In this document: positions 8,759 to 24,688 of the stretch, piece after piece | Layout of the letters: each line of letters opens with the position of its first letter | Position numbering within the stretch: the first letter of the stretch is position 1 | The notes under the pieces: model-generated | The model's input: the letters and a program-made list of their open reading frames with translations, nothing else | Told to the model about the DNA's origin: nothing | The model's database searches: none | Virus record (IMG/VR): IMGVR_UViG_3300020281_000123 | Location: 1-24,688 of that record | Reading direction: 5' to 3' (one strand) | DNA from: a virus | Taxonomy: Duplodnaviria > Caudoviricetes | Length of the DNA: 24,688 nt | Translations under genes and position numbers: made by a program

Positions 8759-9052
8759 TTAATGGAGTGTTCGTGTCTTCATTATGATCTGCTCTTTGAT
8801 ATGTTTTAGGTGAGCCATTTCCTCATTGATTCTTCTTTGGAAATATTCTATGCAGATTTGATTCTTCCAACGTTGTCTCTGGTCTTTTGATTTCTTAGAC
8901 TTTTCTAAAAACTCATTTTGTTTTTTAAGGAATTCAACTTCTTCCTTGTAGAGGTCCACAAGGTTAATTTCCTCCATAGGAAAATCATCATCGTATGGTT
9001 GGTGCATAGTCTTAATATTTATCTTCATGTTAAGCAACAGTCTTGTTTTCAA
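8759..9052 (-). CDS. Hypothetical coiled-coil protein (start uncertain)
   Basis: Fills the gap between flanking minus-strand genes. Confidence 0.6.
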   Translation of the reverse strand: MKTRLLLNMKINIKTMHQPYDDDFPMEEINLVDLYKEEVEFLKKQNEFLEKSKKSKDQRQRWKNQICIEYFQRRINEEMAHLKHIKEQIIMKTRTLH

Positions 9053-9683
9053 TGCCTAATTGAACCACATTGTCGTAACCAAACTTACCAAAAGCAAATA
9101 GGTTGAAAGCAACCACATATCTTTCAATGTCGCTTTCGTTAGGATACACAGAATGATATAGTGTGCTAGGAAATAATATAAGCATATTATTCTTAGGTTT
9201 AATTGCCCAGCCATCTGTGTTAAACACATTTAATTTTTCATTATTGAATGGCACGTCAATGGTTGGTGTGAATAGATTGAAGTTTGATTTGTCTTTGTGG
9301 AATAGGATTGCTCCACTATCGTCATCTGTTTGCAAATACAATACGCCACTGATCATAGCATTGGCGTGATTGTGTGCACCACTCTCGTCACCTTTAATAT
9401 GTTTTGTGGACCAACTATTAGTCATTTCGAATTTACAATCTTTACGCACATCTAACACATCATGAATGAAATGTTCACAATGTTTCATCACAAGTCCTTT
9501 CAAATTTTTTAGTTCAGGCTTGTCCAATAAAAACTTATCTGTAGATCCATAACCGTTGTCGGCAGGGAAACGTTTGTATTCTGTTTTCTTAATATAGTCT
9601 ATGCTGTCTTGGTCAATCGTTTGTAGTGTCGATTGATACAAAGGGATACCAAACAAAGGTGTTACATTAAATTGATCTGTCAT
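9030..9683 (-). CDS. Putative 2OG-Fe(II) oxygenase (TIGR02466-like)
   Basis: NSW...AHNHANAMISGVLYL...LILFPSTLYHSV...RYVVAFN motifs; GAGGA RBS. Confidence 0.85.
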   Translation of the reverse strand: MTDQFNVTPLFGIPLYQSTLQTIDQDSIDYIKKTEYKRFPADNGYGSTDKFLLDKPELKNLKGLVMKHCEHFIHDVLDVRKDCKFEMTNSWSTKHIKGDESGAHNHANAMISGVLYLQTDDDSGAILFHKDKSNFNLFTPTIDVPFNNEKLNVFNTDGWAIKPKNNMLILFPSTLYHSVYPNESDIERYVVAFNLFAFGKFGYDNVVQLGIENKTVA

Positions 9684-9834
9684 GTTCCTCTATCCATTCC
9701 TTTATATTGTCTTCTGTAAAATATATTCCTGCGGGCCAAAGCATAGGCTTTTCTTTTCTTACTTGCTCATCTGTCTGATAGTCATTCATTTTCTTAAAGA
9801 TATAACTTGCTAAACTTTTCACATAATTGTTCAT
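9667..9834 (-). CDS. Small hypothetical protein (55 aa)
   Basis: Hand translation MNNYVKSLASYIFKKMNDY...EHDRSI*; ATGA overlap with the upstream gene; below the track length cutoff. Confidence 0.6.
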   Translation of the reverse strand: MNNYVKSLASYIFKKMNDYQTDEQVRKEKPMLWPAGIYFTEDNIKEWIEEHDRSI

Positions 9835-10253
9835 AGGTTCATTAAACTCCTCATACTAGGTTCAATCATTTCCCTGCCCCATTGTGGTTGCATGGTTATT
9901 TTAACCTGACAATTAGTGATACCTTCTATGGCTGTGACCTGTCCTATGATGTCCAAAGGTATCTGATCAGCGGCAGGACAAAATGCAGAAGTCAATGTCA
10001 TCAACACATGGACCACCTTGTCTTCGGTGACCTTGACATCGTATATCAAACCGAGATTGTAAATGTCTATTGTAATTTCTGGATCGTGAACTTTTTGTAA
10101 TGCTTCTTTTATCTGTGTGATGTATTGTGCTTTTGTAGGCTCATGGTTAGTGACACTATCCAATGTTGCATGGACACTTGGGTCTACACTCTGTTTAGGC
10201 TTTGGTGGCCAATCAGGAGCATACTTGACTTCTTCTTTATAATCATCACTCAT
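9831..10253 (-). CDS. DUF59/MIP18 (SufT/PaaD-like) Fe-S cluster assembly protein
   Basis: ALQKVHDPEITIDIYNLGLIY...MTLTSAFCPAA...PQW matches the DPE-x-T-CP signature. Confidence 0.9.
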   Translation of the reverse strand: MSDDYKEEVKYAPDWPPKPKQSVDPSVHATLDSVTNHEPTKAQYITQIKEALQKVHDPEITIDIYNLGLIYDVKVTEDKVVHVLMTLTSAFCPAADQIPLDIIGQVTAIEGITNCQVKITMQPQWGREMIEPSMRSLMNL

Positions 10254-10258
10254 ACCAT

Positions 10259-10287
10259 ATTATAGTATGAATACCAAAAAAAGTCAA
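10259..10287 (-). promoter_or_regulatory. Sigma70-type promoter, probably giving a leaderless mRNA
   Basis: TTGACT-17 nt-TATAAT-5 nt-ATG (10253). Confidence 0.7.
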
Positions 10288-10701
10288 TTATTTTAACCAG
10301 CCGATTTTCTTACCGTTTTTGATTCTTCTATCGTGTTCTTCTAATGTGCTAGGAAATCTCCATGCCCAGATGGCAACCAATGCCATGAATACACCTGACC
10401 ATAATACTGCCTTGATGTTACCAGTGAAGTACCATGTGAATGCTAATGTAGTGGACATAACAAATACCATTGCGTATTTGCCTTTTTGTGGGAACACTCT
10501 TTTCTGTGTCCAGTTTGTAAGGAACTTACCGAACCATGGGTGGTTGTATAACCAACGTTCCATCTTCTTGTTTGACTTTGCAAAACAATAAGCGGAGAAC
10601 ACAAGGAAGATACTAAACGGAATTCCTGGTGTAATGAAGCCTATGTATGCTATGGCTAAACTGATGAAACCTAAAGCCATAAAAATATATTTCTTAATCA
10701 T
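10288..10701 (-). CDS. ybaN: YbaN/DUF454 family inner membrane protein
   Basis: LG..SL.I..IG..PG.P...F...SAYCFAKS....WL..HPWFG pattern with several TM helices. Confidence 0.8.
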
Positions 10702-11884
10702 GATATACCTCTTTTAATTTGTCTGCTAGATCACTTATCATTGCGTCTGTGTGCAATGGTGTTGGAGCAAATCTTAATCTCTCAGTGCCTTTTGCCACTG
10801 TAGGATAGTTTATTGGTTGAACATAAATGTCGTGATCAAATAATAAAGTGTCACTTATCTTTTTACACTTCACTGGATCTCTGACCATGACCGGAACTAA
10901 ATGTGTGTCATTAGGATACACTTCAATATTGTAATCTGTTAATAGTGATTTAAGTTCCATTGCTTTTTCCTGATGCTGACTTCTTAATTCTCTACCGCCT
11001 TCATCTTTTAGATACTTAACACTTGCTAATGCTCCTGCACAGATAACTGGCGGAATGCTTGTTGTGAATATAAAGCCGGGCGATACACTTCTAATGGCAT
11101 CTACAATTTCTTTGTCTCCTGCTATGTAACCACCATGCAAACCAAACGCCTTACTGAAACTACCACTTACAATATCAACTCTGTCTTGCAATCCTATTTT
11201 CTCTAACCAACCTGCACCCGTGTCTCCATAAAGTCCTACTGCGTGTACTTCGTCAATGTATGTGATTGCTTTGTATTTGTCTGCTAAATCTAATATCTCT
11301 TTAATTAATGCAACGTCACCCTCCATGCTGTACACTGATTCAAATATTAAACAAGGTGTGCCTTTCACTGCTTTCAGTTTTTCTTCTAGGTCTTCTAGAT
11401 TGTTATGTTTAAAAATATGTCTTGGTGCTTTACTTTTTAATATACCTTGGATCAATGATGCGTGATTGTTGTCGTCACTAACAAATTCTATATCATCTAT
11501 AATTTTAGTCATAGATATAAGTGTCCATTCATTTGCCACAAAGGCTGAAGTATGGATCAATGCAGATTCTTTCCTGTGTAATTTTGCGACTTCTAATTCT
11601 AATGCTACGTGATAGTGTGTGGTTCCAGATATGTTTCGTGTTCCACCACTGCCTGCTCCAGTTGTGTCTAGTGCTGTCTTCATTGCGTCAATGACAATTT
11701 TATGTTGACCCATTCCAAGATAATCATTGCTACACCAATTGATTACATTTTTTATTCCGTACTTGCTGTACCATATAGTTCTAGGAAAGTTTCCTGCTTC
11801 ACGCAACACATCATTGAACACACGATAGTTTCCTGATTCCTTCAAGGCATCAGTTACTTTTATAAAAGGGTCTTTTGAGATCAT
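10694..11884 (-). CDS. hemA: 5-aminolevulinate synthase (PLP-dependent, Shemin/C4 pathway)
   Basis: [59 protein letters not shown] (PLP Lys), [17 protein letters not shown]. Confidence 0.95.
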
Positions 11885-11915
11885 ATATTGTATTTATTAT
11901 AATATGCGTACTTTA

Positions 11916-12455
11916 TTAGATGTATTTGTCTATGATTTGTTTACTGCAAATCTCTATTGCTTTCTCATAGATTTGTGTCGTTGGAGTTTCAAGACTTAAC
12001 TCCGGGGTAGGTATTGCTGTCATCCAACACTTGCTATTGATCTCACCTTCAAGTTGCCCTGGAGACCATATGCTTAATCCACTGAACACTCTCCAAGCCT
12101 GTGGTTGGTCCTGTTCGTGCATCTTCTTTAACATCTGTGGATCACTTGTTATACTGATGCCGTTTGCGAGTGGCAGTGTGTTTTTACATTTCCATTCGTT
12201 TGTGTGCATCATTATGATGTTTCCTTGATTCACAGGTCCACCTGAGTAAACCAGATCGCTTATGTTGATTGTTTTAAATCCTTTGACTTGAAATATCTTT
12301 TGTAACTTTGTTCTTGTTGGTTTGTTAATTACCAAACCAGCCACGTGCTGTGGAGACTCTTCATAAAGGTACACTACACTTCTGTCAAATGTTGAATCAC
12401 TCCTCATCTTTGGAGTGCTGACTAGAATTTTATTTGTCCAAACTGGTTCTATCAT
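11916..12455 (-). CDS. YqgE/AlgH (DUF179) family protein
   Basis: FDRSVVYL...GLVINKP...YSGGPV...FSGLSIWSPGQLEGEI...W. Confidence 0.85.
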   Translation of the reverse strand: MIEPVWTNKILVSTPKMRSDSTFDRSVVYLYEESPQHVAGLVINKPTRTKLQKIFQVKGFKTINISDLVYSGGPVNQGNIIMMHTNEWKCKNTLPLANGISITSDPQMLKKMHEQDQPQAWRVFSGLSIWSPGQLEGEINSKCWMTAIPTPELSLETPTTQIYEKAIEICSKQIIDKYI

Positions 12456-12688
12456 TATTTGTATAAAGGTAAAGGACCACCGTAGGGTTTTCCTTTAATC
12501 TTTTTCCCTGCTACGTAAACTCTTTTCTTGCCTATCTTGTATGACTTATCTCCAGAACGTTTTCTGAAACCCTGTGATTTGCATGATGCCAATTGACTGG
12601 CTCCTAATGCATGGTCAGGTTTTTTACTCTTGCACAGTTTCTTACTGGCTGGTCCTGCCTCTTGTGATATGAATTCAGTTACTCTCAT
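12455..12688 (-). CDS. Small basic protein with N-terminal MRVTEFISQE motif
   Basis: 77 aa, Lys-rich; TAAATA at 12694-12699. Confidence 0.7.
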   Translation of the reverse strand: MRVTEFISQEAGPASKKLCKSKKPDHALGASQLASCKSQGFRKRSGDKSYKIGKKRVYVAGKKIKGKPYGGPLPLYK

Positions 12689-12696
12689 ACAAATAT

Positions 12697-12918
12697 TTAC
12701 CTATATTGATCCGCTGGATCGGTTGATACTGTCACCGGACATAGTTTAAATGTGAGCACTTTACGGGTGCCTCTCGTGGTGTTTATCACAATGTCCCCCG
12801 ATTTATCAAAGTGTTCTATCTTTGTGATACGTGCTTTTTCTTCTTTTTTGCCAACTAATATTTCTTGACCAAGTTGTAGATTGATCTGAATGGATTTAAG
12901 GTTCATAACTTCCTCCAT
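12697..12918 (-). CDS. Small beta-rich hypothetical protein
   Basis: 73 aa; TATAAATA at 12942-12949. Confidence 0.65.
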   Translation of the reverse strand: MEEVMNLKSIQINLQLGQEILVGKKEEKARITKIEHFDKSGDIVINTTRGTRKVLTFKLCPVTVSTDPADQYR

Positions 12919-12944
12919 TAGATTATTATGAAATGTACTTGTAT

Positions 12945-13322
12945 TTATATGGTAAGTTCTGTGAAGCCTTTTTCCCTGTCCAAGTATTTGTGTTCTACCT
13001 TTGTAGGGTTAAGTTCTTTCAATATGTCTAGCACTCTTTCTGGTGCGAATGGTCCGCAAGTGTAAACGTCAAGTTGTACTAGGGCAGGCTTTACTTCGTC
13101 CCAAATGTGCATGGCAATATGACTTGTTTCGATGATTGCAAATGCTGTGATACCTCTGTTGCCAGCCATCTTGCAATATGAAGCAGTTGGCCCATACATG
13201 GATTTCATCCCTATTGCTTTTATTATCCTATTAAGAAACTTGATAGCCTTGTTCCTTTTGGTGATCGGCTCGGAAACTTCTGCTCTAATAATAATGTGTT
13301 TATGTTCTAGTACTTTTGTCAT
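12945..13322 (-). CDS. speD: S-adenosylmethionine decarboxylase proenzyme (short pyruvoyl type)
   Basis: HIII...GITAFAIIETSHIAMHIW...QLDVYTCG...R. Real start is MTKVLEH at 13322; the track's N-terminal extension overlaps a divergent gene. Confidence 0.85.
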   Translation of the reverse strand: MTKVLEHKHIIIRAEVSEPITKRNKAIKFLNRIIKAIGMKSMYGPTASYCKMAGNRGITAFAIIETSHIAMHIWDEVKPALVQLDVYTCGPFAPERVLDILKELNPTKVEHKYLDREKGFTELTI

Positions 13323-13367
13323 CCATCTATTTACAAAAAACCCAGCAAAACCAACACTTTTGCGGCA

Positions 13368-13396
13368 TTGACATTTTGGCTTGTAGATGCTACTAT
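13368..13396 (+). promoter_or_regulatory. Sigma70-type promoter, probably giving a leaderless mRNA
   Basis: TTGACA-17 nt-TACTAT-5 nt-ATG (13402). Confidence 0.65.
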
Positions 13397-13401
13397 AAGG
13401 T

Positions 13402-13629
13402 ATGAAGAAAATTTTGTCAACAATTATTTTATTTGTGACACTGACAGGCTGTTCTGCCACAATGAATGAATGGCAAGTAGGAGCCAAACATCCAGGATAC
13501 AAAGCAAAAGATGTGTGTTGGATTTGTGGTGAACAGATCAAGTTCTTTCCAAATGAAGAATATGGCATGAGTAAAGCCATTGAAGAATGTGATTATTGGA
13601 ACAATCAGGATTGCAAATTAGGATACTAG
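13402..13629 (+). CDS. Small lipoprotein
   Basis: MKK, hydrophobic stretch, lipobox LTGC; four further Cys. Confidence 0.75.
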   Translation: MKKILSTIILFVTLTGCSATMNEWQVGAKHPGYKAKDVCWICGEQIKFFPNEEYGMSKAIEECDYWNNQDCKLGY

Positions 13630-13638
13630 GGAGGAAAA

Positions 13639-13833
13639 ATGCATACTGAAGATAATAAAAAAGTAAGAATAGCGGAGTTAGAGAGACAGAAGATATCTCT
13701 TGAAGACCAATTACAATTCACAACAGATGTAAAAAGAATTATAGAAATAGAAGAGGAACTTTTCGAAGTAAAAGACACTATTAAAAAATTAACTGAACCT
13801 TGGGGAGTCACTGATGTACAATCAACTCACTAA
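13639..13833 (+). CDS. Small coiled-coil protein
   Basis: GGAGG RBS; 64 aa. Confidence 0.7.
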   Translation: MHTEDNKKVRIAELERQKISLEDQLQFTTDVKRIIEIEEELFEVKDTIKKLTEPWGVTDVQSTH

Positions 13834-13969
13834 AATGTTTGAACCTAGTAAAGATAGACTAATAAACAATGCAAGAACAATGATGCTGACAGCACAAGAC
13901 CCTTGGTTCAAAAAGTATTGGGAGAAAGTGTATAAGCATTTATTAAAAGTATATGGGAGGTTGAACTAA
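13814..13969 (+). CDS. Small hypothetical protein (51 aa)
   Basis: Hand translation MYNQLTKMFEPSKDRLINNAR...WFKKYWEKVYKHLLKVYGRLN*; GGAG RBS; TAATG coupling to the next gene. Confidence 0.65.
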   Translation: MYNQLTKMFEPSKDRLINNARTMMLTAQDPWFKKYWEKVYKHLLKVYGRLN

Positions 13970-14187
13970 TGTCAGAAGATGTATTAGGGTATTCATCACA
14001 CGATTGGAGAAAGAATACAGATGACGCTATCGTGATAGATTCAAAAAATATGAATTATGCGAAAGTGAATGATTGTAAAGTAAGTTTTAAAAATCCTAGA
14101 ACTTTACAAAAAGAAGAAGTTGATTTGTCTAGATTGATTAGAGTGTTTGTAAACAATTTTGAAAGTCATAAAAGGAGTGTAAAATAA
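13969..14187 (+). CDS. Hypothetical protein
   Basis: GGAGG RBS; coupled on both sides. Confidence 0.7.
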   Translation: MSEDVLGYSSHDWRKNTDDAIVIDSKNMNYAKVNDCKVSFKNPRTLQKEEVDLSRLIRVFVNNFESHKRSVK

Positions 14188-14447
14188 TGTCAGATGACAT
14201 TAAGAAGAAATTAGGAGTAGACGACACACATCAAAAGATGTATGACGAACTGTTCGCAGAGATGGTTAACCAAACAGTGGATCAAGATCCTCAAATGGTT
14301 GCTAGTGTGTTGGTTGCATTGGGATTGAGATTATATAGGAGTTGTTTACCACAAGAAGAATTTGCTAAATTGGTTCAGGTGTTTGCTGATAATTCCAAAG
14401 ACATCAGACCATTCCAAGAAGAATTACAAAAAAAGATATTACATTAA
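14187..14447 (+). CDS. Hypothetical protein
   Basis: AGGAG RBS; TAATG coupling. Confidence 0.7.
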   Translation: MSDDIKKKLGVDDTHQKMYDELFAEMVNQTVDQDPQMVASVLVALGLRLYRSCLPQEEFAKLVQVFADNSKDIRPFQEELQKKILH

Positions 14448-14641
14448 TGACTAGAAAAGTAACAAAAAAGAAACTGATTAAGATATTGAAAGGCGACAAA
14501 AAGAAAGAACAAATGGAAGACAGATATCAATCGTTGGCAGAATGTATAAGAAGTGATCAGGTGCCTGCAAGTGATGTTGCCAAATTCTTTAGTGACAAAA
14601 AGTTTTATGGTTGGTATAAAAGAAAGTATTTGAGGTATTAA
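14447..14641 (+). CDS. Small basic hypothetical protein
   Basis: TAATG coupling on both sides. Confidence 0.7.
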   Translation: MTRKVTKKKLIKILKGDKKKEQMEDRYQSLAECIRSDQVPASDVAKFFSDKKFYGWYKRKYLRY

Positions 14642-14817
14642 TGAAAGCATATGGATTTACAATGAAGAGAGACAATGTCACAATAGAGACATTTGTTTAT
14701 AGTGAACACGGAAAAGATATTGAAAATAGATTTCCAGAATGGAAAGTGACAGACATCAAAGAGATACCTGATCCAATGTCACAAAACAACGCAGGCGAAA
14801 AGAAGGAAAAGAATTGA
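14641..14817 (+). CDS. Small hypothetical protein (58 aa)
   Basis: Hand translation MKAYGFTMKRDNVTIETFVYSEHG...KEKN*; GAGG RBS. Confidence 0.65.
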   Translation: MKAYGFTMKRDNVTIETFVYSEHGKDIENRFPEWKVTDIKEIPDPMSQNNAGEKKEKN

Positions 14818-14842
14818 CAATGACGTTCAACGATGTTAATAT
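14814..14842 (+). promoter_or_regulatory. Sigma70-type promoter
   Basis: TTGACA-17 nt-TAATAT. Confidence 0.55.
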
Positions 14843-14866
14843 AACGAAAGGCAACAGGAAGGCAAT

Positions 14867-15001
14867 ATGATAAAAGGCATGATAATCGGTGCTATTATAA
14901 TGTACATTTACCTTGTACAGCCAGAATGGGCAGATCAAATTATTATTTCTGCTAAATCATTAGGGCAGTCAATAATAGACGCTATCCAGAACAGTCTATA
15001 A
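14867..15001 (+). CDS. Small membrane protein (44 aa)
   Basis: Hand translation MIKGMIIGAIIMYIYLVQPEWADQIIISAKSLGQSIIDAIQNSL*; AGGAAGG upstream. Confidence 0.6.
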   Translation: MIKGMIIGAIIMYIYLVQPEWADQIIISAKSLGQSIIDAIQNSL

Positions 15002-15032
15002 TACTTTTATATTCTTTCTGGGAAAGGAAAGA

Positions 15033-15272
15033 ATGAGAAGTTATAAATTTCATAAAGAAGACGAAAGAACATCGGACGATAAAATCGCGGAGAACGAACG
15101 TCTGATGAAAGAGTTCCTCAAGAAAGGTGGCAAGATCCAAAAGATCCCTTACGGAGTCACCAGTCAAGATTTAGGTTCTGGCAATGCCAACAATCTTTAT
15201 CTCCCACCAAAAACTATGTCACCAAAGCAGTGGCGCCGACAAGAGACACTCAAAAAGAAGAAAAAGAAATAA
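15033..15272 (+). CDS. Small basic hypothetical protein
   Basis: EFLKKGGKIQKIP segment; AAGGA RBS. Confidence 0.7.
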   Translation: MRSYKFHKEDERTSDDKIAENERLMKEFLKKGGKIQKIPYGVTSQDLGSGNANNLYLPPKTMSPKQWRRQETLKKKKKK

Positions 15273-15292
15273 ATCGGTAAATACTTTTATAC

Positions 15293-15661
15293 ATGAAAAA
15301 GTTAATCCTAACTACACTAATCGCTCTAATTCTATCTATCATACCAACATCGGCGGACCATAGACCTGCTTTACCACAATTAGAAGAAGGTTTCAATTGG
15401 AATGAAGTTCCAGTTATCTGTGGCTCACACGAAGCAATCATGCAGAAGATGGAAAGATTGAATATGAATTTGCTCCACGCATCTTTTGGCAAGAAGGGTG
15501 CAAATCCAGATGGCGATGTTGTGTTCATGGTATTATATTACGCAAACCAACAAGGTACAACCACGGCGGCAGTATTGACCATGCCAAATGATCCTACTGC
15601 CTGTCTATTATTTGTAACATTCGATGTCACACTCGCACCAGAAAAAAAACAAAACTTTTAG
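15293..15661 (+). CDS. Secreted hypothetical protein
   Basis: Sec-type signal peptide and two Cys; TAAATA at 15278-15283. Confidence 0.7.
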   Translation: MKKLILTTLIALILSIIPTSADHRPALPQLEEGFNWNEVPVICGSHEAIMQKMERLNMNLLHASFGKKGANPDGDVVFMVLYYANQQGTTTAAVLTMPNDPTACLLFVTFDVTLAPEKKQNF

Positions 15662-15857
15662 CAGTGCATCCACTGGCTCCAATTACGCAGTCAATCTGTA
15701 TGAGTTCATAGTACACGATGGACAATACAATGTATATGCCATGGACTACAAGGACGCATGGGCAACACTATTCGAAAATGAACCAAAAATAAAACCAAAA
15801 GACATTATGTTCATGACCGAAACCAAGTGTGCTACCAAAAACGAAACACTACATTAA
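15624..15857 (+). CDS. Hypothetical protein (start uncertain)
   Basis: Fills the gap before the dnaK promoter. Confidence 0.5.
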   Translation: MSHSHQKKNKTFSSASTGSNYAVNLYEFIVHDGQYNVYAMDYKDAWATLFENEPKIKPKDIMFMTETKCATKNETLH

Positions 15858-15872
15858 TTTCTCCAAAATACT

Positions 15873-15903
15873 CTTGACATTTCAATATTAGTGCTTATAT
15901 AAT
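15873..15903 (+). promoter_or_regulatory. dnaK promoter with overlapping RpoH-like and sigma70-like elements
   Basis: CTTG-17 nt-CTTATAT (15873-15900) and TTGACA-18 nt-TATAAT (15874-15903). Confidence 0.6.
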
Positions 15904-15948
15904 GTACTGAGCATATTTTTAACTTGCTTAATTAGGAGGAAAATAGAA

Positions 15949-17865
15949 ATGGCAAAGATAATAGGAATAGACTTAGGTACTACCAATAGTTGTGTTGCTC
16001 TCATGGAAGGTAAAAGTTCCAAGGTAATCGAGAACACAGAAGGAGCGAGGACCACACCAAGTGTGGTTGCTTATAGCGACTCCGAGATACTTGTTGGTGC
16101 ACCAGCAAAAAGACAAGCCGTCAGCAATAGTAAGAACACAATCTTCGCGGCGAAGCGATTGATTGGTAGAACTTTTGACGGTGATTCAGTACAAAAAGAT
16201 ATTAAGACTTTACCTTACGAGATAGTAAAGGCGGACAATGGAGATGCTTGGATCAAAGCAAATGACAAGAAATTTTCTCCATCAGAGATATCCGCGAACG
16301 TCTTACGTAAGATGAAAGAGACAGCAGAAAAATATCTGGGTCAAGAAGTAACGAAAGCAGTAATCACTGTTCCGGCATACTTTAATGATAGCCAAAGAAA
16401 GGCTACAAAGGACGCAGGTAAGATTGCAGGTCTAGAAGTTGAAAGGATCATTAACGAACCAACAGCGGCGGCATTGGCGTATGGACTTGACAAGAAGAAG
16501 TCAGGTACGGTTGCAGTGTACGACTTAGGTGGTGGTACATTTGATATTTCAATATTAGAACTAGGCGATGGAGTGTTCGAGGTCAAATCAACCAACGGTG
16601 ACACATCTTTGGGTGGTGAAGATTTCGATTCGGCAATCACAAACTACATTATTAATGAGTTCAAAAAAGATAATGGCATTGACCTAACAAGCGACAAGTT
16701 GGCTGTGCAACGTGTTAGAGAGGCGGCTGAAAAGGCTAAGATAGAACTTTCTAGTGCTAGTGAAACAGATGTGAACTTGCCGTTTATTACAGCAGACAAG
16801 TCAGGACCAAAACACATAGCAATGAAGATGACTAGAGCAAAACTAGAATCATTGGTAGGTGAACTGATTCAAAGAACACTTGCACCTTGTAAGCAGGCTA
16901 TCAAAGATGCAGACATAAAAGCAGGTGATATCAGTGACGTTGTATTGGTTGGTGGTATGACACGTATGCCAAAAGTAATAGAAACAGTCAAAACATTCTT
17001 TGGAAAAGAACCAAACAAAGGTGTAAACCCAGATGAAGTTGTGGCATTAGGTGCCGCGATACAGGGTGGTGTGCTACAAGGAGACGTTAAAGATGTCTTG
17101 TTGTTAGACGTTACACCATTATCACTTGGTATTGAAACACTAGGTGGGGTTGCTACCAAACTGATAGAGAAGAACACGACTATTCCAACGAAGAAGAGTC
17201 AGGTCTTTTCAACTGCCGAAGACAATCAGGCGGCGGTGACTATCAGAGTTGTACAGGGTGAAAGGGAAATGGCAAACGATAACAAGATGCTAGGTAACTT
17301 TAACCTTGAAGGTATTGCACCTGCTCCAAGAGGAGTGCCACAGATTGAAGTAACATTTGACATAGACGCAAATGGTATCGTAAGTGTAAGTGCTAAAGAC
17401 AAAGGCACTGGCAAAGAACAAAAAATTACGATCAAGGCTGATGGTGGCTTATCTGAGGACGAGATCAACAAGATGGTTAAAGAAGCAGAAGCCAATAAAG
17501 AAGCAGACAAGAAGAAAAGAGATTTGGTAGAAGCGAAGAACCAAGCAGAAACGTTGACTCATCAGATAGAAAAACAATTGAAAGAGCATGGAGAGAAGAT
17601 ATCCGCTGAAGAAAAGAAAGCGATTGAAGATGCCAAAACTGAAGTGACTGAATCAGTCAAGTCAGAAGACGCAGATAAAATCAAAGCGGCAGTGGCTAAA
17701 CTTACAGAAGCATCCATGAAACTTGGCGAGGCTGTGTACAAACAGGCACAGGCAGATCAACAGAAGCAAGAAGCACCTAGCGAAGGTCAAGACGCAAAGG
17801 ACGAAAAGGTTGTTGACGCCGAGTTTGAAGAAGTAGACAAAGACAAAGACGATAAGAAAGAATAA
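15949..17865 (+). CDS. dnaK: Chaperone DnaK (Hsp70)
   Basis: [58 protein letters not shown]-terminal VVDAEFEEV; AGGAGG RBS. Confidence 0.98.
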
Positions 17866-19291: not shown

Positions 19292-19367
19292 GCCGCTTTA
19301 GCTCAGCCGGTAGAGCAACTGATTTGTAATCAGTAGGTCCGCGGTTCGAATCCGTGAAGCGGCACCA
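19292..19367 (+). tRNA. tRNA-Thr(UGU)
   Basis: GCCGCTT/AAGCGGC acceptor stem, ACTGA-TTTGTAA-TCAGT anticodon arm, GTTCGAATC T-loop, encoded CCA; 76 nt. Confidence 0.97.
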
Positions 19368-20676: not shown

Positions 20677-20689
20677 GATAATATTTATG

Positions 20690-20763
20690 TGGAGGTAATG
20701 CCTGGAATCGAACCAGGATAAAAGGATTTGCAATCCTCCGCGTAACCATTCCGCCACATTACC
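20690..20763 (-). tRNA. tRNA-Cys(GCA)
   Basis: GGTAATG/CATTACC acceptor stem, U discriminator, GAGGA-TTGCAAA-TCCTT anticodon arm, encoded CCA; 74 nt. Confidence 0.96.
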
Positions 20764-20766
20764 TTA

Positions 20767-20842
20767 TGGCGGTCCTTACGGGAATCGAACCCGTGATCTT
20801 CCGCGTGACAGGCGGACGTGTTAACCGCTACACCAAAGGACC
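20767..20842 (-). tRNA. tRNA-Asp(GUC)
   Basis: GGTCCTT/AAGGACC acceptor stem, TCCGC-CTGTCAC-GCGGA anticodon arm, encoded CCA; 76 nt. Confidence 0.97.
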
Positions 20843-20843
20843 T

Positions 20844-20917
20844 TGGCTGGCCCTCAAGGACTCGAACCTCAAATAACGGTACCAAAAACCGCTGTGATAC
20901 CATTTCACCAAGGGCCA
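20844..20917 (-). tRNA. tRNA-Gln(UUG)
   Basis: TGGCCCT/AGGGCCA acceptor stem, GCGGT-TTTTGGT-ACCGT anticodon arm, encoded CCA; 74 nt. Confidence 0.95.
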
Positions 20918-20922
20918 ACATT

Positions 20923-21078
20923 TTCAGTCCGTAAGCAGGATTCTGTTCTATGACATCATTTATCTTTGCGTCTATACCCGGAGTCATGGTTGAGCATAAA
21001 GACTCTCTATTTGGACTCGCACTCTCAACAGTGTCCTGACTTTCCTCAAACATTTCTGTTCGCGATGTCTCGACTGAA
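20923..21078 (-). ncRNA. rnpB: Minimal RNase P RNA (catalytic domain only)
   Basis: Conserved GAGGAAAGUC and ACAGAAUCCUGCUUA motifs. P1, P2, P3, P4 (bulged U), P5, P6, P15, P16 and P17 can all be paired by hand; the S-domain and P18 are absent. Confidence 0.9.
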
Positions 21079-21083
21079 TCCTT

Positions 21084-21112
21084 ATTATACAACACAAAAT
21101 AAACTTTGTCAA
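21084..21112 (-). promoter_or_regulatory. Consensus sigma70 promoter for the RNase P RNA-tRNA operon
   Basis: TTGACA(21112-21107)-17 nt-TATAAT(21089-21084); predicted start ~21078 coincides with the 5' strand of P1. Confidence 0.85.
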
Positions 21113-21185
21113 TTATGTATACACTTAATATTATGTGGTAGTTTTATTAAATATTAGAAGCAATTAGCGGGGGCAAGTGCGACAC

Positions 21186-24100
21186 ATGAATACTCTGAAC
21201 ACGAGTGGAAAAACTTCAATCACAATAGATGGATCTGTATTATTACGTGGTGACTATTCAGTCATCGACAAGGATCTAATCATTTCTACTGACTCAGACA
21301 CGGTATTGGTGAAAGATTATTTTGTCAATTTGCCAACTCTTGTATCGCCTCAAGGCGCATCACTTACCCCCAAACTTGTGTCCTCGCTATCTGCCTATCA
21401 ATCAAACGAATTTTTAGCATTTCAAGATCCAAAAGCAATTGGTGAAATCACAGTCACCGATGGTCCTATTGTTATCACAAGGGTGGGTCAGAAGATTGAA
21501 CTGCAACAGGGAGACTTCATCTATCTAAATGACTTTGTGGATGTAGGTCAGAACACAGTTGGTATAACTTTCAAAGACGACACAGCACTATCATTAGAGC
21601 CAGGAGCCAAGATGGTTGTGGACGAATTCTATTATGATCCAGAAGCCAATCAAGGTGGAATGAATGCAGATGTAATTGGAGGATCTTTTTCTTTCGTATC
21701 AGGAAACATTGCCAAGGTAGGCAATGACGCAATGACTGTAAGCACACCTGTCTTAACGATTGGTGTAAGAGGAACACAGGTTGCGGGTAGAGCCAATCAG
21801 GAAGGCGAGGACAACGAAATAGTTTTATTACCTAACGCAGATGGCACTGTGGGAGAGATCAGTATTAAAAATGATAGCGGCGAAGTTATATTGACAGAGG
21901 CTTACCAAGCCACAACAATCACTAGTGCAATCATGCCACCAACTGTGCCTGTGATATTACCAAAAGAAATTGTGCTTAAGAAGTATGCCAAGACTATTTC
22001 CACAACACGTAAGACAGAAAAGATAAAAGAAGTTGAAAGGGAAACTGAAGAAGCGACTAAAGAAAAAGAAGAAGCAGAATCAGAAAAGGAACAACTTGAA
22101 GAGGAAGCAGAAGAACTTGAGGAAGAAGCGGAACAACTTGAGGAAGAAAAAGAACAACTAGAAGAAGAGGCTGAACAACTCGAAGAAGAGAAGGAACAAC
22201 TTGAAGAGAAAGCCGAGGAGTTAAAAGAAGAAATTGCTGAACTAGAAGAGAAATTAGAAAACGCAGATGCTGATGAGATAGAAGAGATCCAAGAAGAACT
22301 TGCTGAAGCAGAACAAGAGATCGAAGAAGTTGAAGAACAAGTTGAGGAAGTGCTTGAAGAAGAAAAGGTCATCGAACAGAAAGTAGAACAGGTTGAAGAA
22401 AAGGTTGAAGAAGTAAAACAGGAAGTACAACAGATAGAACAAAAAGTTGAATTCGTTGAAGAGAAAATTGTACAGGTTGAAGAAAAGTTTGATGCCATTG
22501 TGGAAGAATTTGAAGTGTTCCAAGAAGAATTTGTGCAGGAGTTCCAGGACTTCATACCAGAAGAAGAAATTGAACAGTTCATGGAAGAGGCACCACTCGA
22601 GATCATAGAAGAGTTCCAGGAAAAGATAATAGAGAAACTGGAGAACGATGGTGTTGAACTGCAAGAAAATATCGAAGAGGAACCTGAAGATATATTTGCA
22701 GAAGAGAACGTTAAAGAGAAATTGGAAGAGATCGAAGAGAAACAGGAAGAACTTATCGAGAAGGCTGACGAACTGATGGAGAAGGATATGCAACTCCAGG
22801 AAGAGGCACAGGCACTTGAAGAGGAAGCCAAAGCACTTGAAGAAGAGGCACAGGCACTTGAAGAAGCGGCAGAGGAAGCATATGCCAACAATGACCAAGA
22901 AGCGATCCAAGAAATCGAAGAGCAGTTCCAACAACTTGATGAAGAGAGACAACAGATTGATCAAGGTTTCCAAGAGATCGACGAGCAATACGAAGAACTG
23001 GATGAAAACTTTGAAGAACTGAACAACGAATTCTTTGCCATGGATGAAGAATTACAGGAAGTATTTCAAGATGGTCCTATGGTTGTGCGGGTACCGGAAG
23101 ATGGTCCAGGATACAATGAAAACGATGATGTGTTCAATGTCCCTGAGGATCAACAGATCAATATAAATGTGGAAGAGTTTTTAGCAGAAGAGAAACAGAA
23201 CGCACTACAAAACAATGAATTTGCAATCGAAGCCGACAATTTCTTTAACGATCAAGAAGTACAAGAGGCACTACCAGATGATATAGATCAGAATGTTCAA
23301 GACATGATGGTCATTCAGGCTGGCAATCTAGACGAATATTTTCTGGGTGCAGGAGCAGGCATAGAAACTCCAGAAGACTTCTATGCAGAAGATCCAATGC
23401 AAGACTTCTACAACATCGTGGACAACAACGAAGAATTGTACAATGCAGAAAGAGATGCCCAAGACTTCATGGACGATCTCATAGAAGATTTAGCCGCGGA
23501 GAACAACATCAACGTTGCTCCATGGTTGGATATGCCAAACGATGTCACAGTGACAGAGTCAAATGCCAAAACATCAGGAGTCGTGGTTGGTTATGTGTAC
23601 GGTTCTGATGCCAACGGAGACACATTAACCTACAGCATCTTTGATGATCCAACAGGTGCTTTATCACTGAGCGGCAACACAATCACTTGGGACGGTACAT
23701 TTGCCAATATCACTCAGGACACAACCTACACAGTCTTATTAAAAGTGCAGGATCCTTACGGTGCTTCGGACATAGACAGTTTCAATATAACCGTGACTGC
23801 TGATGGATTTGTCACATACACCAAAGCCACTGTTGGTGTTCACTATCAAGATGATGGCACAAATCAAAGTGGTGGTGAACAGGTAGCGCCAGTAATGGCT
23901 GAATTTGTGGAAGACATAGGACACACAGCGTCAATAATGAACAGTTTCACTTCCAGCAACCTCGATGACCTTGACCTACTTTGGGTCACAGAAAGTTATC
24001 ATAGTGGAAACCCTTTTGCGAGTGCCATGGCATCGGGTGGAGCAATCAACACCTGGGTCAATAACGGTGGAACATTGATATTCCATGATAGGTCGTATGC

Positions 24101-24688
24101 AACTAATGAAGTTCTGCCCAACACAGGTGGAGCCAACTTTAGTAATTCTGGTCCACAAGATTCTGATGATGTCACCTTTGCCAGTGGCACCAGTCTATTG
24201 ACCAATGGGCCTGCTGGTGTGATGTACAACACCATTACAGAGGCAATCAACAACAGTGGCTACACACTTGATGGTGGAAGTCTCAGCACACATGGTAGAA
24301 CACTAATCTCATCACTGCCATCCGATGCTGTGGCCACAATCTTCGACGATGATCAGAACACTGACTATGCCACAGACTTCTGGTATGGCTACGGTTCGGG
24401 TCACGTGTACTACTCACACATACCACTGGATTGTTACATAGGTGGTAACTGTGACCCTGACAACAGCAACGACAACAGGCCCCAATCCCAATACAGAAGT
24501 ATATGGGACGAAGGTTCTGACGTGTATGCCCAGAACTTGCTTCATTATATGTTGAACCAAGTCAAGTACACATCAACGGATCAACACAAATATCAGGGCA
24601 CTGGAGCCGCTGAGGCAATCGCAGGTACGCACAACTCGGACATCATATTCGGTAGAGATGGTGGTGACACTCTTTGGGGTGGCGGTGG
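21186..24688 (+). CDS. Giant acidic protein with FecR-like domain, Glu-rich coiled coil, cadherin-like domain and RTX-like repeats (runs off the window end)
   Basis: Frame from ATG 21186 is open to the window end (>1160 aa). FecR-like FKDDTALSL...FYYDP...FSFVSGNIAK...TPVLTIGVRGT; cadherin-like NVAP...GSDANGDTLTYSI...VQDPYGA; DIIFGRDGGDTLWGGG at the end; TAAATA at 21148-21153. Confidence 0.85.
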   Translation, partial: MNTLNTSGKTSITIDGSVLLRGDYSVIDKDLIISTDSDTVLVKDYFVNLPTLVSPQGASLTPKLVSSLSAYQSNEFLAFQDPKAIGEITVTDGPIVITRVGQKIELQQGDFIYLNDFVDVGQNTVGITFKDDTALSLEPGAKMVVDEFYYDPEANQGGMNADVIGGSFSFVSGNIAKVGNDAMTVSTPVLTIGVRGTQVAGRANQEGEDNEIVLLPNADGTVGEISIKNDSGEVILTEAYQATTITSAIMPPTVPVILPKEIVLKKYAKTISTTRKTEKIKEVERETEEATKEKEEAESEKEQLEEEAEELEEEAEQLEEEKEQLEEEAEQLEEEKEQLEEKAEELKEEIAELEEKLENADADEIEEIQEELAEAEQEIEEVEEQVEEVLEEEKVIEQKVEQVEEKVEEVKQEVQQIEQKVEFVEEKIVQVEEKFDAIVEEFEVFQEEFVQEFQDFIPEEEIEQFMEEAPLEIIEEFQEKIIEKLENDGVELQENIEEEPEDIFAEENVKEKLEEIEEKQEELIEKADELMEKDMQLQEEAQALEEEAKALEEEAQALEEAAEEAYANNDQEAIQEIEEQFQQLDEERQQIDQGFQEIDEQYEELDENFEELNNEFFAMDEELQEVFQDGPMVVRVPEDGPGYNENDDVFNVPEDQQININVEEFLAEEKQNALQNNEFAIEADNFFNDQEVQEALPDDIDQNVQDMMVIQAGNLDEYFLGAGAGIETPEDFYAEDPMQDFYNIVDNNEELYNAERDAQDFMDDLIEDLAAENNINVAPWLDMPNDVTVTESNAKTSGVVVGYVYGSDANGDTLTYSIFDDPTGALSLSGNTITWDGTFANITQDTTYTVLLKVQDPYGASDIDSFNITVTADGFVTYTKATVGVHYQDDGTNQSGGEQVAPVMAEFVEDIGHTASIMNSFTSSNLDDLDLLWVTESYHSGNPFASAMASGGAINTWVNNGGTLIFHDRSYATNEVLPNTGGANFSNSGPQDSDDVTFASGTSLLTNGPAGVMYNTITEAINNSGYTLDGGSLSTHGRTLISSLPSDAVATIFDDDQNTDYATDFWYGYGSGHVYYSHIPLDCYIGGNCDPDNSNDNRPQSQYRSIWDEGSDVYAQNLLHYMLNQVKYTSTDQHKYQGTGAAEAIAGTHNSDIIFGRDGGDTLWGGG
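22089..22214 (+). repeat. Six degenerate 21-nt tandem repeats encoding E[QE]LEE[EK][AK] heptads
   Basis: gaacaacttgaagaggaagca-like units, in frame within the giant ORF. Confidence 0.8.
22800..22871 (+). repeat. About three 21-nt repeats encoding EEEA[QK]AL heptads
   Basis: gaagaggcacaggcacttgaa units. Confidence 0.75.

Follow-up and report, generated by a model that had tools for sequence, protein, structure and literature searches.

Bacterial RNase P RNA of type A (Rfam RF00010; M1 RNA of E. coli, rnpB) is typically 340-420 nt long (PMC4919922), and the reviews searched treat RNase P RNA as cellular and its specificity domain as the reader of the tRNA elbow. As described in passages of PMC2615603, RnpA binds the P2-J2/3-J3/4-P4-J18/2 region, which lies wholly within the catalytic domain, and the isolated catalytic domain of E. 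coli is active with RnpA, no activity being detected without the protein. In the same passages, this domain plus RnpA reacts at 77 x 10^-4 per min versus 82,000 x 10^-4 per min for the full RNA, which is about 1000-fold slower. Passages of PMC11143913 report that bacterial catalytic domains cut pre-tRNA with lower affinity, and that the GGU of L15 pairs with the 3' RCCA of the tRNA.

Among natural RNAs, the closest precedent for a lost specificity domain is the type T (type P) RNA that archaea of the genus Pyrobaculum and their relatives have, and archaeal enzymes contain at least four proteins (passages of PMC4919922). The reduced RNAs of CPR bacteria and of Mycoplasma fermentans have diverged below the Rfam threshold, as has the phage RNA described here, but they are cellular and lose single helices (P12, P13, P14, P16 or P17); for the megaphages treated in the passages concerned, only tRNAs and tmRNA are reported (PMC8172020). 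Phage theta ribozymes are likewise phage-encoded and located beside tRNA genes, but they are HDV-like self-cleavers at tRNA 3' ends with a fold unrelated to RNase P RNA (PMC10879173). The engineered catalytic domain of E. coli (Ecat) and the M1 deletion 94-204 share the design of the phage RNA and are active with RnpA, but both are laboratory constructs, about 1000-fold slower, whereas the phage RNA occurs in nature and its structure is under selection. Fungal mitochondrial RPM1 RNAs are also very short, show little similarity to other RNase P RNAs and depend on the large protein RPM2. The smallest of them is near 140 nt, so the phage RNA is not to be called the smallest RNase P RNA.

No description of a phage-encoded RNase P RNA was found in the full-text literature, a scope outside which subscription journals and supplements lie, and a prior report may exist. 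Term searches over parts of the texts found RNase P unmentioned in four papers on large phages (PMC7162821, PMC13282480, PMC9123017 and PMC12619734) and phage unmentioned in an RNase P review (PMC10941002). The 156-nt phage RNase P RNA analysed here is real and conserved, and apparently undescribed in the literature searched.

Identity and anatomy of the 156-nt RNA

The whole stretch of DNA analysed, referred to as the window, is a viral fragment of 24.7 kb, corresponding to 6% completeness. A sequence-only reading of its minus strand had proposed a phage-encoded RNase P RNA of type A that consists of the catalytic domain alone, and this identity was confirmed, at the level of sequence, by alignment to RF00010 and by the intact elements of the catalytic domain. 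In a search at the E-value level, RF00010 matched the RNA with 63.1 bits (E 6.8e-19) over model positions 1-367, with the 154 positions of the specificity domain reduced to 2 nt and the 24 positions of P18 to none. These deletions agree with the proposal that the S-domain (P7-P14) has been swapped for the 6-nt P6 strand and that P18 is gone. The cut-off of RF00010 is 100 bits, below which the RNA falls, and its relatives score 67-79 bits. The archaeal model RF00373 gave a lower score than RF00010 (47.4 bits), and RF02357 (type T, 208 positions) gave no match in the window at E<=10, so that no full-length Rfam match reaches any cut-off. At the curated cut-offs only four tRNAs were called in the window and the RNase P RNA was missed, just as had been anticipated for standard models.

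The phage RNA shares P1-P6, P15-P17, CR-I, CR-IV, CR-V, the bulged U of P4 and the GGU of L15 with type A RNAs, but it is 156 nt long and virus-encoded, scores below the gathering threshold, lacks P7-P14, CR-II, CR-III, P18 and P19, and has a G at position 248. As it departs from type A in score, specificity domain, P18 and A248, it is not filed as a plain member of that type. It differs from type T in the absence of an RF02357 match and in having no remnant of the specificity domain.

The pattern made of the two motifs occurs once in the window and in none of 100 shuffles. Single-sequence folding of the RNA was non-significant (z -0.79), as expected for an RNA with two pseudoknots. A coding explanation was rejected: an ORF at 20685-21095 runs across the RNA as well as the three tRNAs, and clustering of related frames is confined to near-identical loci of the window's subtype. 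The features of the locus are the following.

21084..21112, minus: sigma-70-type promoter motif TTGACA-17-TATAAT, 12/12; putative start site near 21078
20923..21078, minus: RNase P RNA, catalytic domain only, 156 nt (motif reading and RF00010 alignment)
21071..21078, minus: 5' strand of P1, 7 pairs plus one inner pair (P1 is 21078-21072/20929-20923)
21063..21069, minus: 5' strand of P2, 6 Watson-Crick pairs plus a terminal G.U (P2 is 21069-21063/20958-20952)
21047..21062, minus: P3 hairpin, 6 pairs, GAAA loop
21034..21046, minus: J3/4 and 5' strand of P4 (CR-I), bulged U at 21039, the position of E. coli U69
21020..21033, minus: P5 hairpin (P5 is 21033-21030/21023-21020); its 6-nt loop, 21029-21024, is the 5' strand of P6
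21017..21019, minus: J5/15, CGA, with G at the position of E. coli A248
21007..21016, minus: 5' strand of P15 and 5' side of L15
20981..21005, minus: P16 (5 pairs), UUU bulge, P17 (3 pairs); 6-nt loop, 20994-20989, is the 3' strand of P6
20970..20980, minus: 3' side of L15 with GGU (20978-20976), predicted partner of the tRNA 3' RCCA, and 3' strand of P15
20952..20969, minus: J15/2 without P18 (CR-IV) and 3' strand of P2
20923..20946, minus: CR-V, 3' strand of P4 (20940-20933) and 3' strand of P1
20918..20922, minus: 5-nt linker between the RNA and tRNA-Gln
20844..20917, minus: tRNA-Gln(UUG), CCA encoded
20767..20842, minus: tRNA-Asp(GUC), CCA encoded
20690..20763, minus: tRNA-Cys(GCA), CCA encoded

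Helices P1 to P6 and the L15 GGU were all found where the sequence-only reading had placed them. P4 (21042-21034/20940-20933) has 8 of 8 Watson-Crick pairs with the bulged U at 21039, and CR-I and CR-V pair in it as a pseudoknot. P5, the P6 pseudoknot, P15, P16 and P17 are all present, P17 being restricted to the window's subtype. P15 consists of 21016-21014/20972-20970, with C.A at the fourth position. A 6-nt P5 loop stands in for the entire specificity domain, and it is fully complementary to the 6-nt P17 loop (P6, 21029-21024/20994-20989); P6 is therefore a loop-loop kissing helix. Neither P19, P18, P7-P14 nor CR-II and CR-III was found in the 156-nt RNA by the RF00010 alignment and the motif reading. 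A contact between P8 and L18 has been described for RNase P RNA in passages of PMC11143913, and in the phage RNA P18 has gone jointly with P8, its docking partner. At the A248 position, where A is reported as optimal in the same source, J5/15 reads CGA in 8 and CAA in 12 of the 20 distinct cores of the catalytic-domain-only type.

The promoter motif ends 6 nt before P1. A scan of the region found three promoter-like sites compared to 2.3 in shuffles, and only TTGACA-17-TATAAT scored 12/12. Part of the stretch is present in 14 marine RNA runs, and among the four runs examined one contig spans 20690-21066 and another joins the RNA to tRNA-Gln, although these are contigs only and DNA carry-over is possible. 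Run X1 covers 29 of 30 bins, flanking genes included, so carry-over of DNA is possible there. A fourth tRNA gene of the window, tRNA-Thr(UGU) with encoded CCA, lies apart at 19292-19367 on the plus strand, opposite to the RNA, and could therefore serve as a trans substrate only.

Host-like genes of the window include those for DnaK, 5-aminolevulinate synthase and a PAAR protein. A host-like cluster extends over 9030-17865 (2OG-Fe(II) oxygenase, FeS assembly protein, DUF454, 5-aminolevulinate synthase, AlgH-like protein, SAM decarboxylase and DnaK). At 21177-24686 on the plus strand, diverging from the promoter of the RNA, an open-ended gene encodes a very large acidic protein that combines a FecR-like domain with a long coil rich in glutamate and has one close relative only in the viral collection. 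The host of the phage is probably alphaproteobacterial, as suggested by the 5-aminolevulinate synthase of the window and by the permuted tmRNA of its relatives, which is of the alphaproteobacterial type.

Relatives and selection on the fold

Relatives were retrieved with a P4-anchored pattern, which gave 10 viral matches, 6 of them of the catalytic-domain-only type, and 49 metagenome matches, 36 of them of that type, with some assemblies shared between the two. Chance pattern matches were dropped (L009, L010 and L014, 3/10; L020, L036, L038, L039, L045 and L053, 6/39 from a longer pattern), and L107 was excluded from the alignment for its N bases. The 27 distinct sequences aligned come from marine T4-like phage DNA, are 61-99% identical and fall into two subtypes, which share 87-99% and 61-66% identity with the window.

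Over the 38 named pairs in the 27 sequences, pairing is kept in 96.5% of the cells, and at 17 pairs both partners have changed. None of 500 shuffles reached the observed level, and slid controls gave 29-38%; since sequences that are related may outscore shuffles, more weight is given to the slid control and to the fit with the known fold. The covariation that the sequence-only reading had called for was thus found among the homologues, P6 included: when the 15 sequences of the second subtype are taken by themselves, pairing in P6 is complete (100%) and two of its five pairs covary. The terminal G.U of P2 is kept in 27/27 sequences, as is GGGUA in L15, which the retrieval patterns had left unfixed. 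RNAalifold, unaided, recovered P1, P2, P3, P16 and part of P5, but not P4 and P15.

As the retrieval patterns fixed much of CR-I and CR-V, the invariance of P4 in the main alignment is largely forced by the pattern. Retrieval through neighbouring proteins (161 loci searched with model R1; 25 records) yielded only one near-identical contig that was already known and hence provided no test of this bias, for which a P4-free pattern served instead. This pattern gave 8 viral contigs, 7 of them of the catalytic-domain-only type, and P4 was canonical in six of these seven. The exception, L341, retains 8 pairs through compensatory changes, with a bulged A in place of U and a C at the G68 position, which at the sequence level confirms selection on the P4 helix. 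The same variant means that the bases of the catalytic site are not invariant, and the argument from invariance is weakened. U69 has been implicated in placing the catalytic metal (passages of PMC11143913), but the ligands at A50 and G51 are phosphate oxygens (passages of PMC4919922), so the bulged-A variant need not be dead. In the phage RNase P RNAs of L341 (749-906, minus) and L336 (752-949, minus), the base that bulges from P4 is an A, and positions of P4 that are normally conserved carry compensated changes.

Judging from sequence comparison, the 156-nt RNA is the extreme end of a continuum of shortened phage RNase P RNAs. With longer patterns, a further 39 and 41 viral matches were obtained, most of them RNase P-like, in which the stretch enclosed by P5 measures 20 and 41-61 nt (stubs) or about 70-120 nt, compared to 6-8 nt in the catalytic-domain-only type; the assignment was automatic and the longest class is uncertain. 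Two cultured phages carry unannotated copies of the stub type. In Microbacterium phage A3Wally (MZ150783.1, L157), an RNase P RNA of about 215 nt lies at 890-1110 between two tRNA genes and scores 72 bits with RF00010, and in Stenotrophomonas phage vB_SmaS-DLP_6 (KU682439.2, L156) an RNase P-like RNA at about 2305-2548, before a tRNA gene, is missed by Rfam and scores 44 bits with our own model. By eye, the P4 bulge of the latter is shifted (2 pairs, bulge, 6 pairs). Phages Zooman and Big4 contain unannotated stretches that match the A3Wally RNA. Three shortened RNase P RNAs in tRNA arrays (L016, L022 and L048), where no assessable tRNA gene encodes CCA, look archaeal-like by eye.

A GTDB scan covering 185,579 cellular genomes yielded 11 short matches, none with the catalytic-domain-only architecture, for an exact pattern by which variants could be missed. 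Most of the 11 are without P15 or P5 and have the appearance of gaps in the assembly. Metagenome contigs (L101, L104, L128 and L097) and MAGs (L145 and L154) also contain RNase P-like cores, 93-109 nt long, in which P4 is retained but P15 and L15 are missing; L101 and L104 are distinct sequences of equal length, and L145 comes from a genome labelled complete. Such cores would represent either assembly collapse or another short form.

Locus organisation across relatives

A promoter motif scoring at least 10/12 lies just upstream in 29 of 30 distinct catalytic-domain-only loci, compared to 7/63 longer viral copies, and a tRNA is found within 25 nt of the core in 27 of 29 assessable loci, compared to 20/63. 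CCA is encoded in all 36 distinct tRNA genes near catalytic-domain-only RNAs, versus 83/170 and 71/113 near longer copies. These contrasts in promoter, linker and CCA come from one phage lineage and are therefore not independent events. The tRNA downstream of the RNA varies (Gln, Ala, Ser or Asp), and so do the protein neighbours, with no family common to more than 11 of the 35 loci given. No adjacent tRNA was found in L096, nor any tRNA in the 46-kb fragment of L341. In eight loci, among them L098 and L174, a basic protein of 73 aa, by eye like ribosomal protein L33, is encoded about 520-740 nt upstream of the RNA.

One relative, G001, is a complete phage of 328 kb with a T4-like Gp23 capsid, and 12 of the 34 window proteins tested have homologues in it (23-82% identity). 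It contains one catalytic-domain-only RNA, 15 tRNA genes, of which a single one abuts the RNA, and one tmRNA; CCA is encoded in 14/14 assessable tRNA genes. RnpA (PF00825) was found in none of five related records, G001 being the complete one, and the window itself is only a fragment. The lack of RnpA in G001 fits with borrowing of the host protein, as far as gene content indicates. A search of G001 for HARP gave nothing above the cut-off, with one 10.6-bit match containing stops, and no CCA-adding enzyme was found in this genome. Neither was a separate specificity domain, as G001 has a single RF00010 match at E<=10 and lacks the CR-II/CR-III motif that 22 of 41 longer viral copies possess. 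Permuted two-piece tmRNAs with the tag ADENLALAA, likely RNase P substrates, are encoded in related phages (L162 14952-15270, L344 12238-12557 and L345 3241-3561).

Proposed function and alternatives

We lean slightly towards a trans-acting RNase P that would borrow host RnpA, hold tRNAs by their CCA end and mature their 5' leaders. Transcription from the adjacent promoter would place the RNA ahead of the tRNAs as their leader, and a cut at the 5' end of the first tRNA, made initially by the host enzyme, would release it. Host RnpA would then bind the P2-P3-P4-J18/2 surface; the P2-J2/3-J3/4-P4-J18/2 region is fully retained in the 156-nt RNA. With no reader of the elbow, the grip on the substrate would come from pairing of the L15 GGU with RCCA, from the acceptor stem and from contacts between RnpA and the leader, and high expression would offset weak binding. 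The benefit would be extra or host-independent maturation of tRNAs and tmRNA during infection. The main difficulty for a trans-acting enzyme would be the rate of the isolated catalytic domain, and the G at the A248 position in the window's subtype also counts against it. So does the fact that the host presumably has an RNase P of its own. According to passages of PMC2615603, a chimera with activity equal to that of the isolated catalytic domain did not rescue the mutant strain, and chimera activity rose linearly with concentration; the latter makes compensation by strong expression plausible.

The same low rate of engineered catalytic domains (about 1000-fold slower) would suit a non-catalytic decoy, an abundant RNA that binds host RnpA or tRNA CCA ends and, without cutting, dampens host tRNA processing or shields tRNA ends. 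The strong promoter motif in 29 of 30 loci, the position of the RnpA-binding surface entirely within the catalytic domain (passages of PMC2615603) and the variation of P4 bases in L341 and L336 with pairing preserved are consistent with it. However, a pure RnpA sponge has no obvious need of P6, P15-P16 and L15, all of which are kept with covariation, P4 is canonical in six of the seven viral contigs obtained with the P4-free pattern, and a decoy would deprive the 15 tRNAs and the tmRNA of the phage itself of processing, so we consider it unlikely. Less probable still is an active enzyme that prefers elbow-less RNAs to tRNAs, such as short RCCA-ending stems, pre-4.5S-like or tmRNA-like RNAs or mRNA hairpins. 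E. coli RNA without residues 94-204 loses cleavage of pre-tRNA-Tyr and still cuts pre-4.5S RNA with the protein (passages of PMC11143913), relatives encode a permuted tmRNA, and L096 and L341 have no adjacent tRNA, but 27 of 29 loci run straight into a tRNA gene, of four kinds, and no alternative substrate was identified in this analysis.

The short linker to the tRNA, kept while the tRNA changes between Gln, Ala, Ser and Asp, could instead reflect a cis-acting ribozyme, in which linkage to the first tRNA makes up for the binding energy lost and the RNA severs itself from the tRNA downstream. M1 RNA cuts substrates that are tethered to its 3' end (passages of PMC11143913), and for phage theta ribozymes, action in cis at the 3' ends of tRNAs has been proposed (PMC10879173). 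Against this, only one of the 15 tRNA genes of G001 abuts the RNA, L096 and L341 have none beside it, and the 5-nt linker, being anchored to P1, offers only a short stretch of single-stranded leader, while RnpA binds positions -8 to -3; cis cleavage thus seems very unlikely. The least probable explanation, with hardly any weight in our assessment, is a decaying relic, an assembly artefact or one half of a split RNA with its specificity domain encoded elsewhere. Short RNase P-like matches in cellular assemblies do resemble collapsed assemblies, but the architecture studied here recurs in 27 distinct sequences of 61-99% identity with compensatory changes, and this covariation already largely refutes the explanation. 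For a split RNA, the single RF00010 match of G001 at E<=10 and its lack of a CR-II/CR-III motif argue to the contrary.

Returning to the trans-acting enzyme, its broader form would be a natural 156-nt RNase P without a specificity domain that matures tRNAs in vivo with nothing more than host RnpA, CCA pairing and a P6 formed by kissing loops. Such an RNA would be a present-day counterpart of the catalytic-domain-only ancestor that has been proposed; we judge this to be evenly poised between right and wrong. A natural, selected RNA without a specificity domain makes it testable whether the catalytic half alone is sufficient in the cell, and what offsets the approximately 1000-fold loss seen in engineered domains, and work in vivo is within reach through the related RNAs of cultured phages, one of which has a harmless laboratory host. 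The RNA also exposes a blind spot of the Rfam cut-offs, and may provide a compact scaffold for structural work and for guide-directed RNA cleavage. RNase P would join the translation functions carried by large phages and, if the proposal is true, viruses encode their own RNase P ribozymes.
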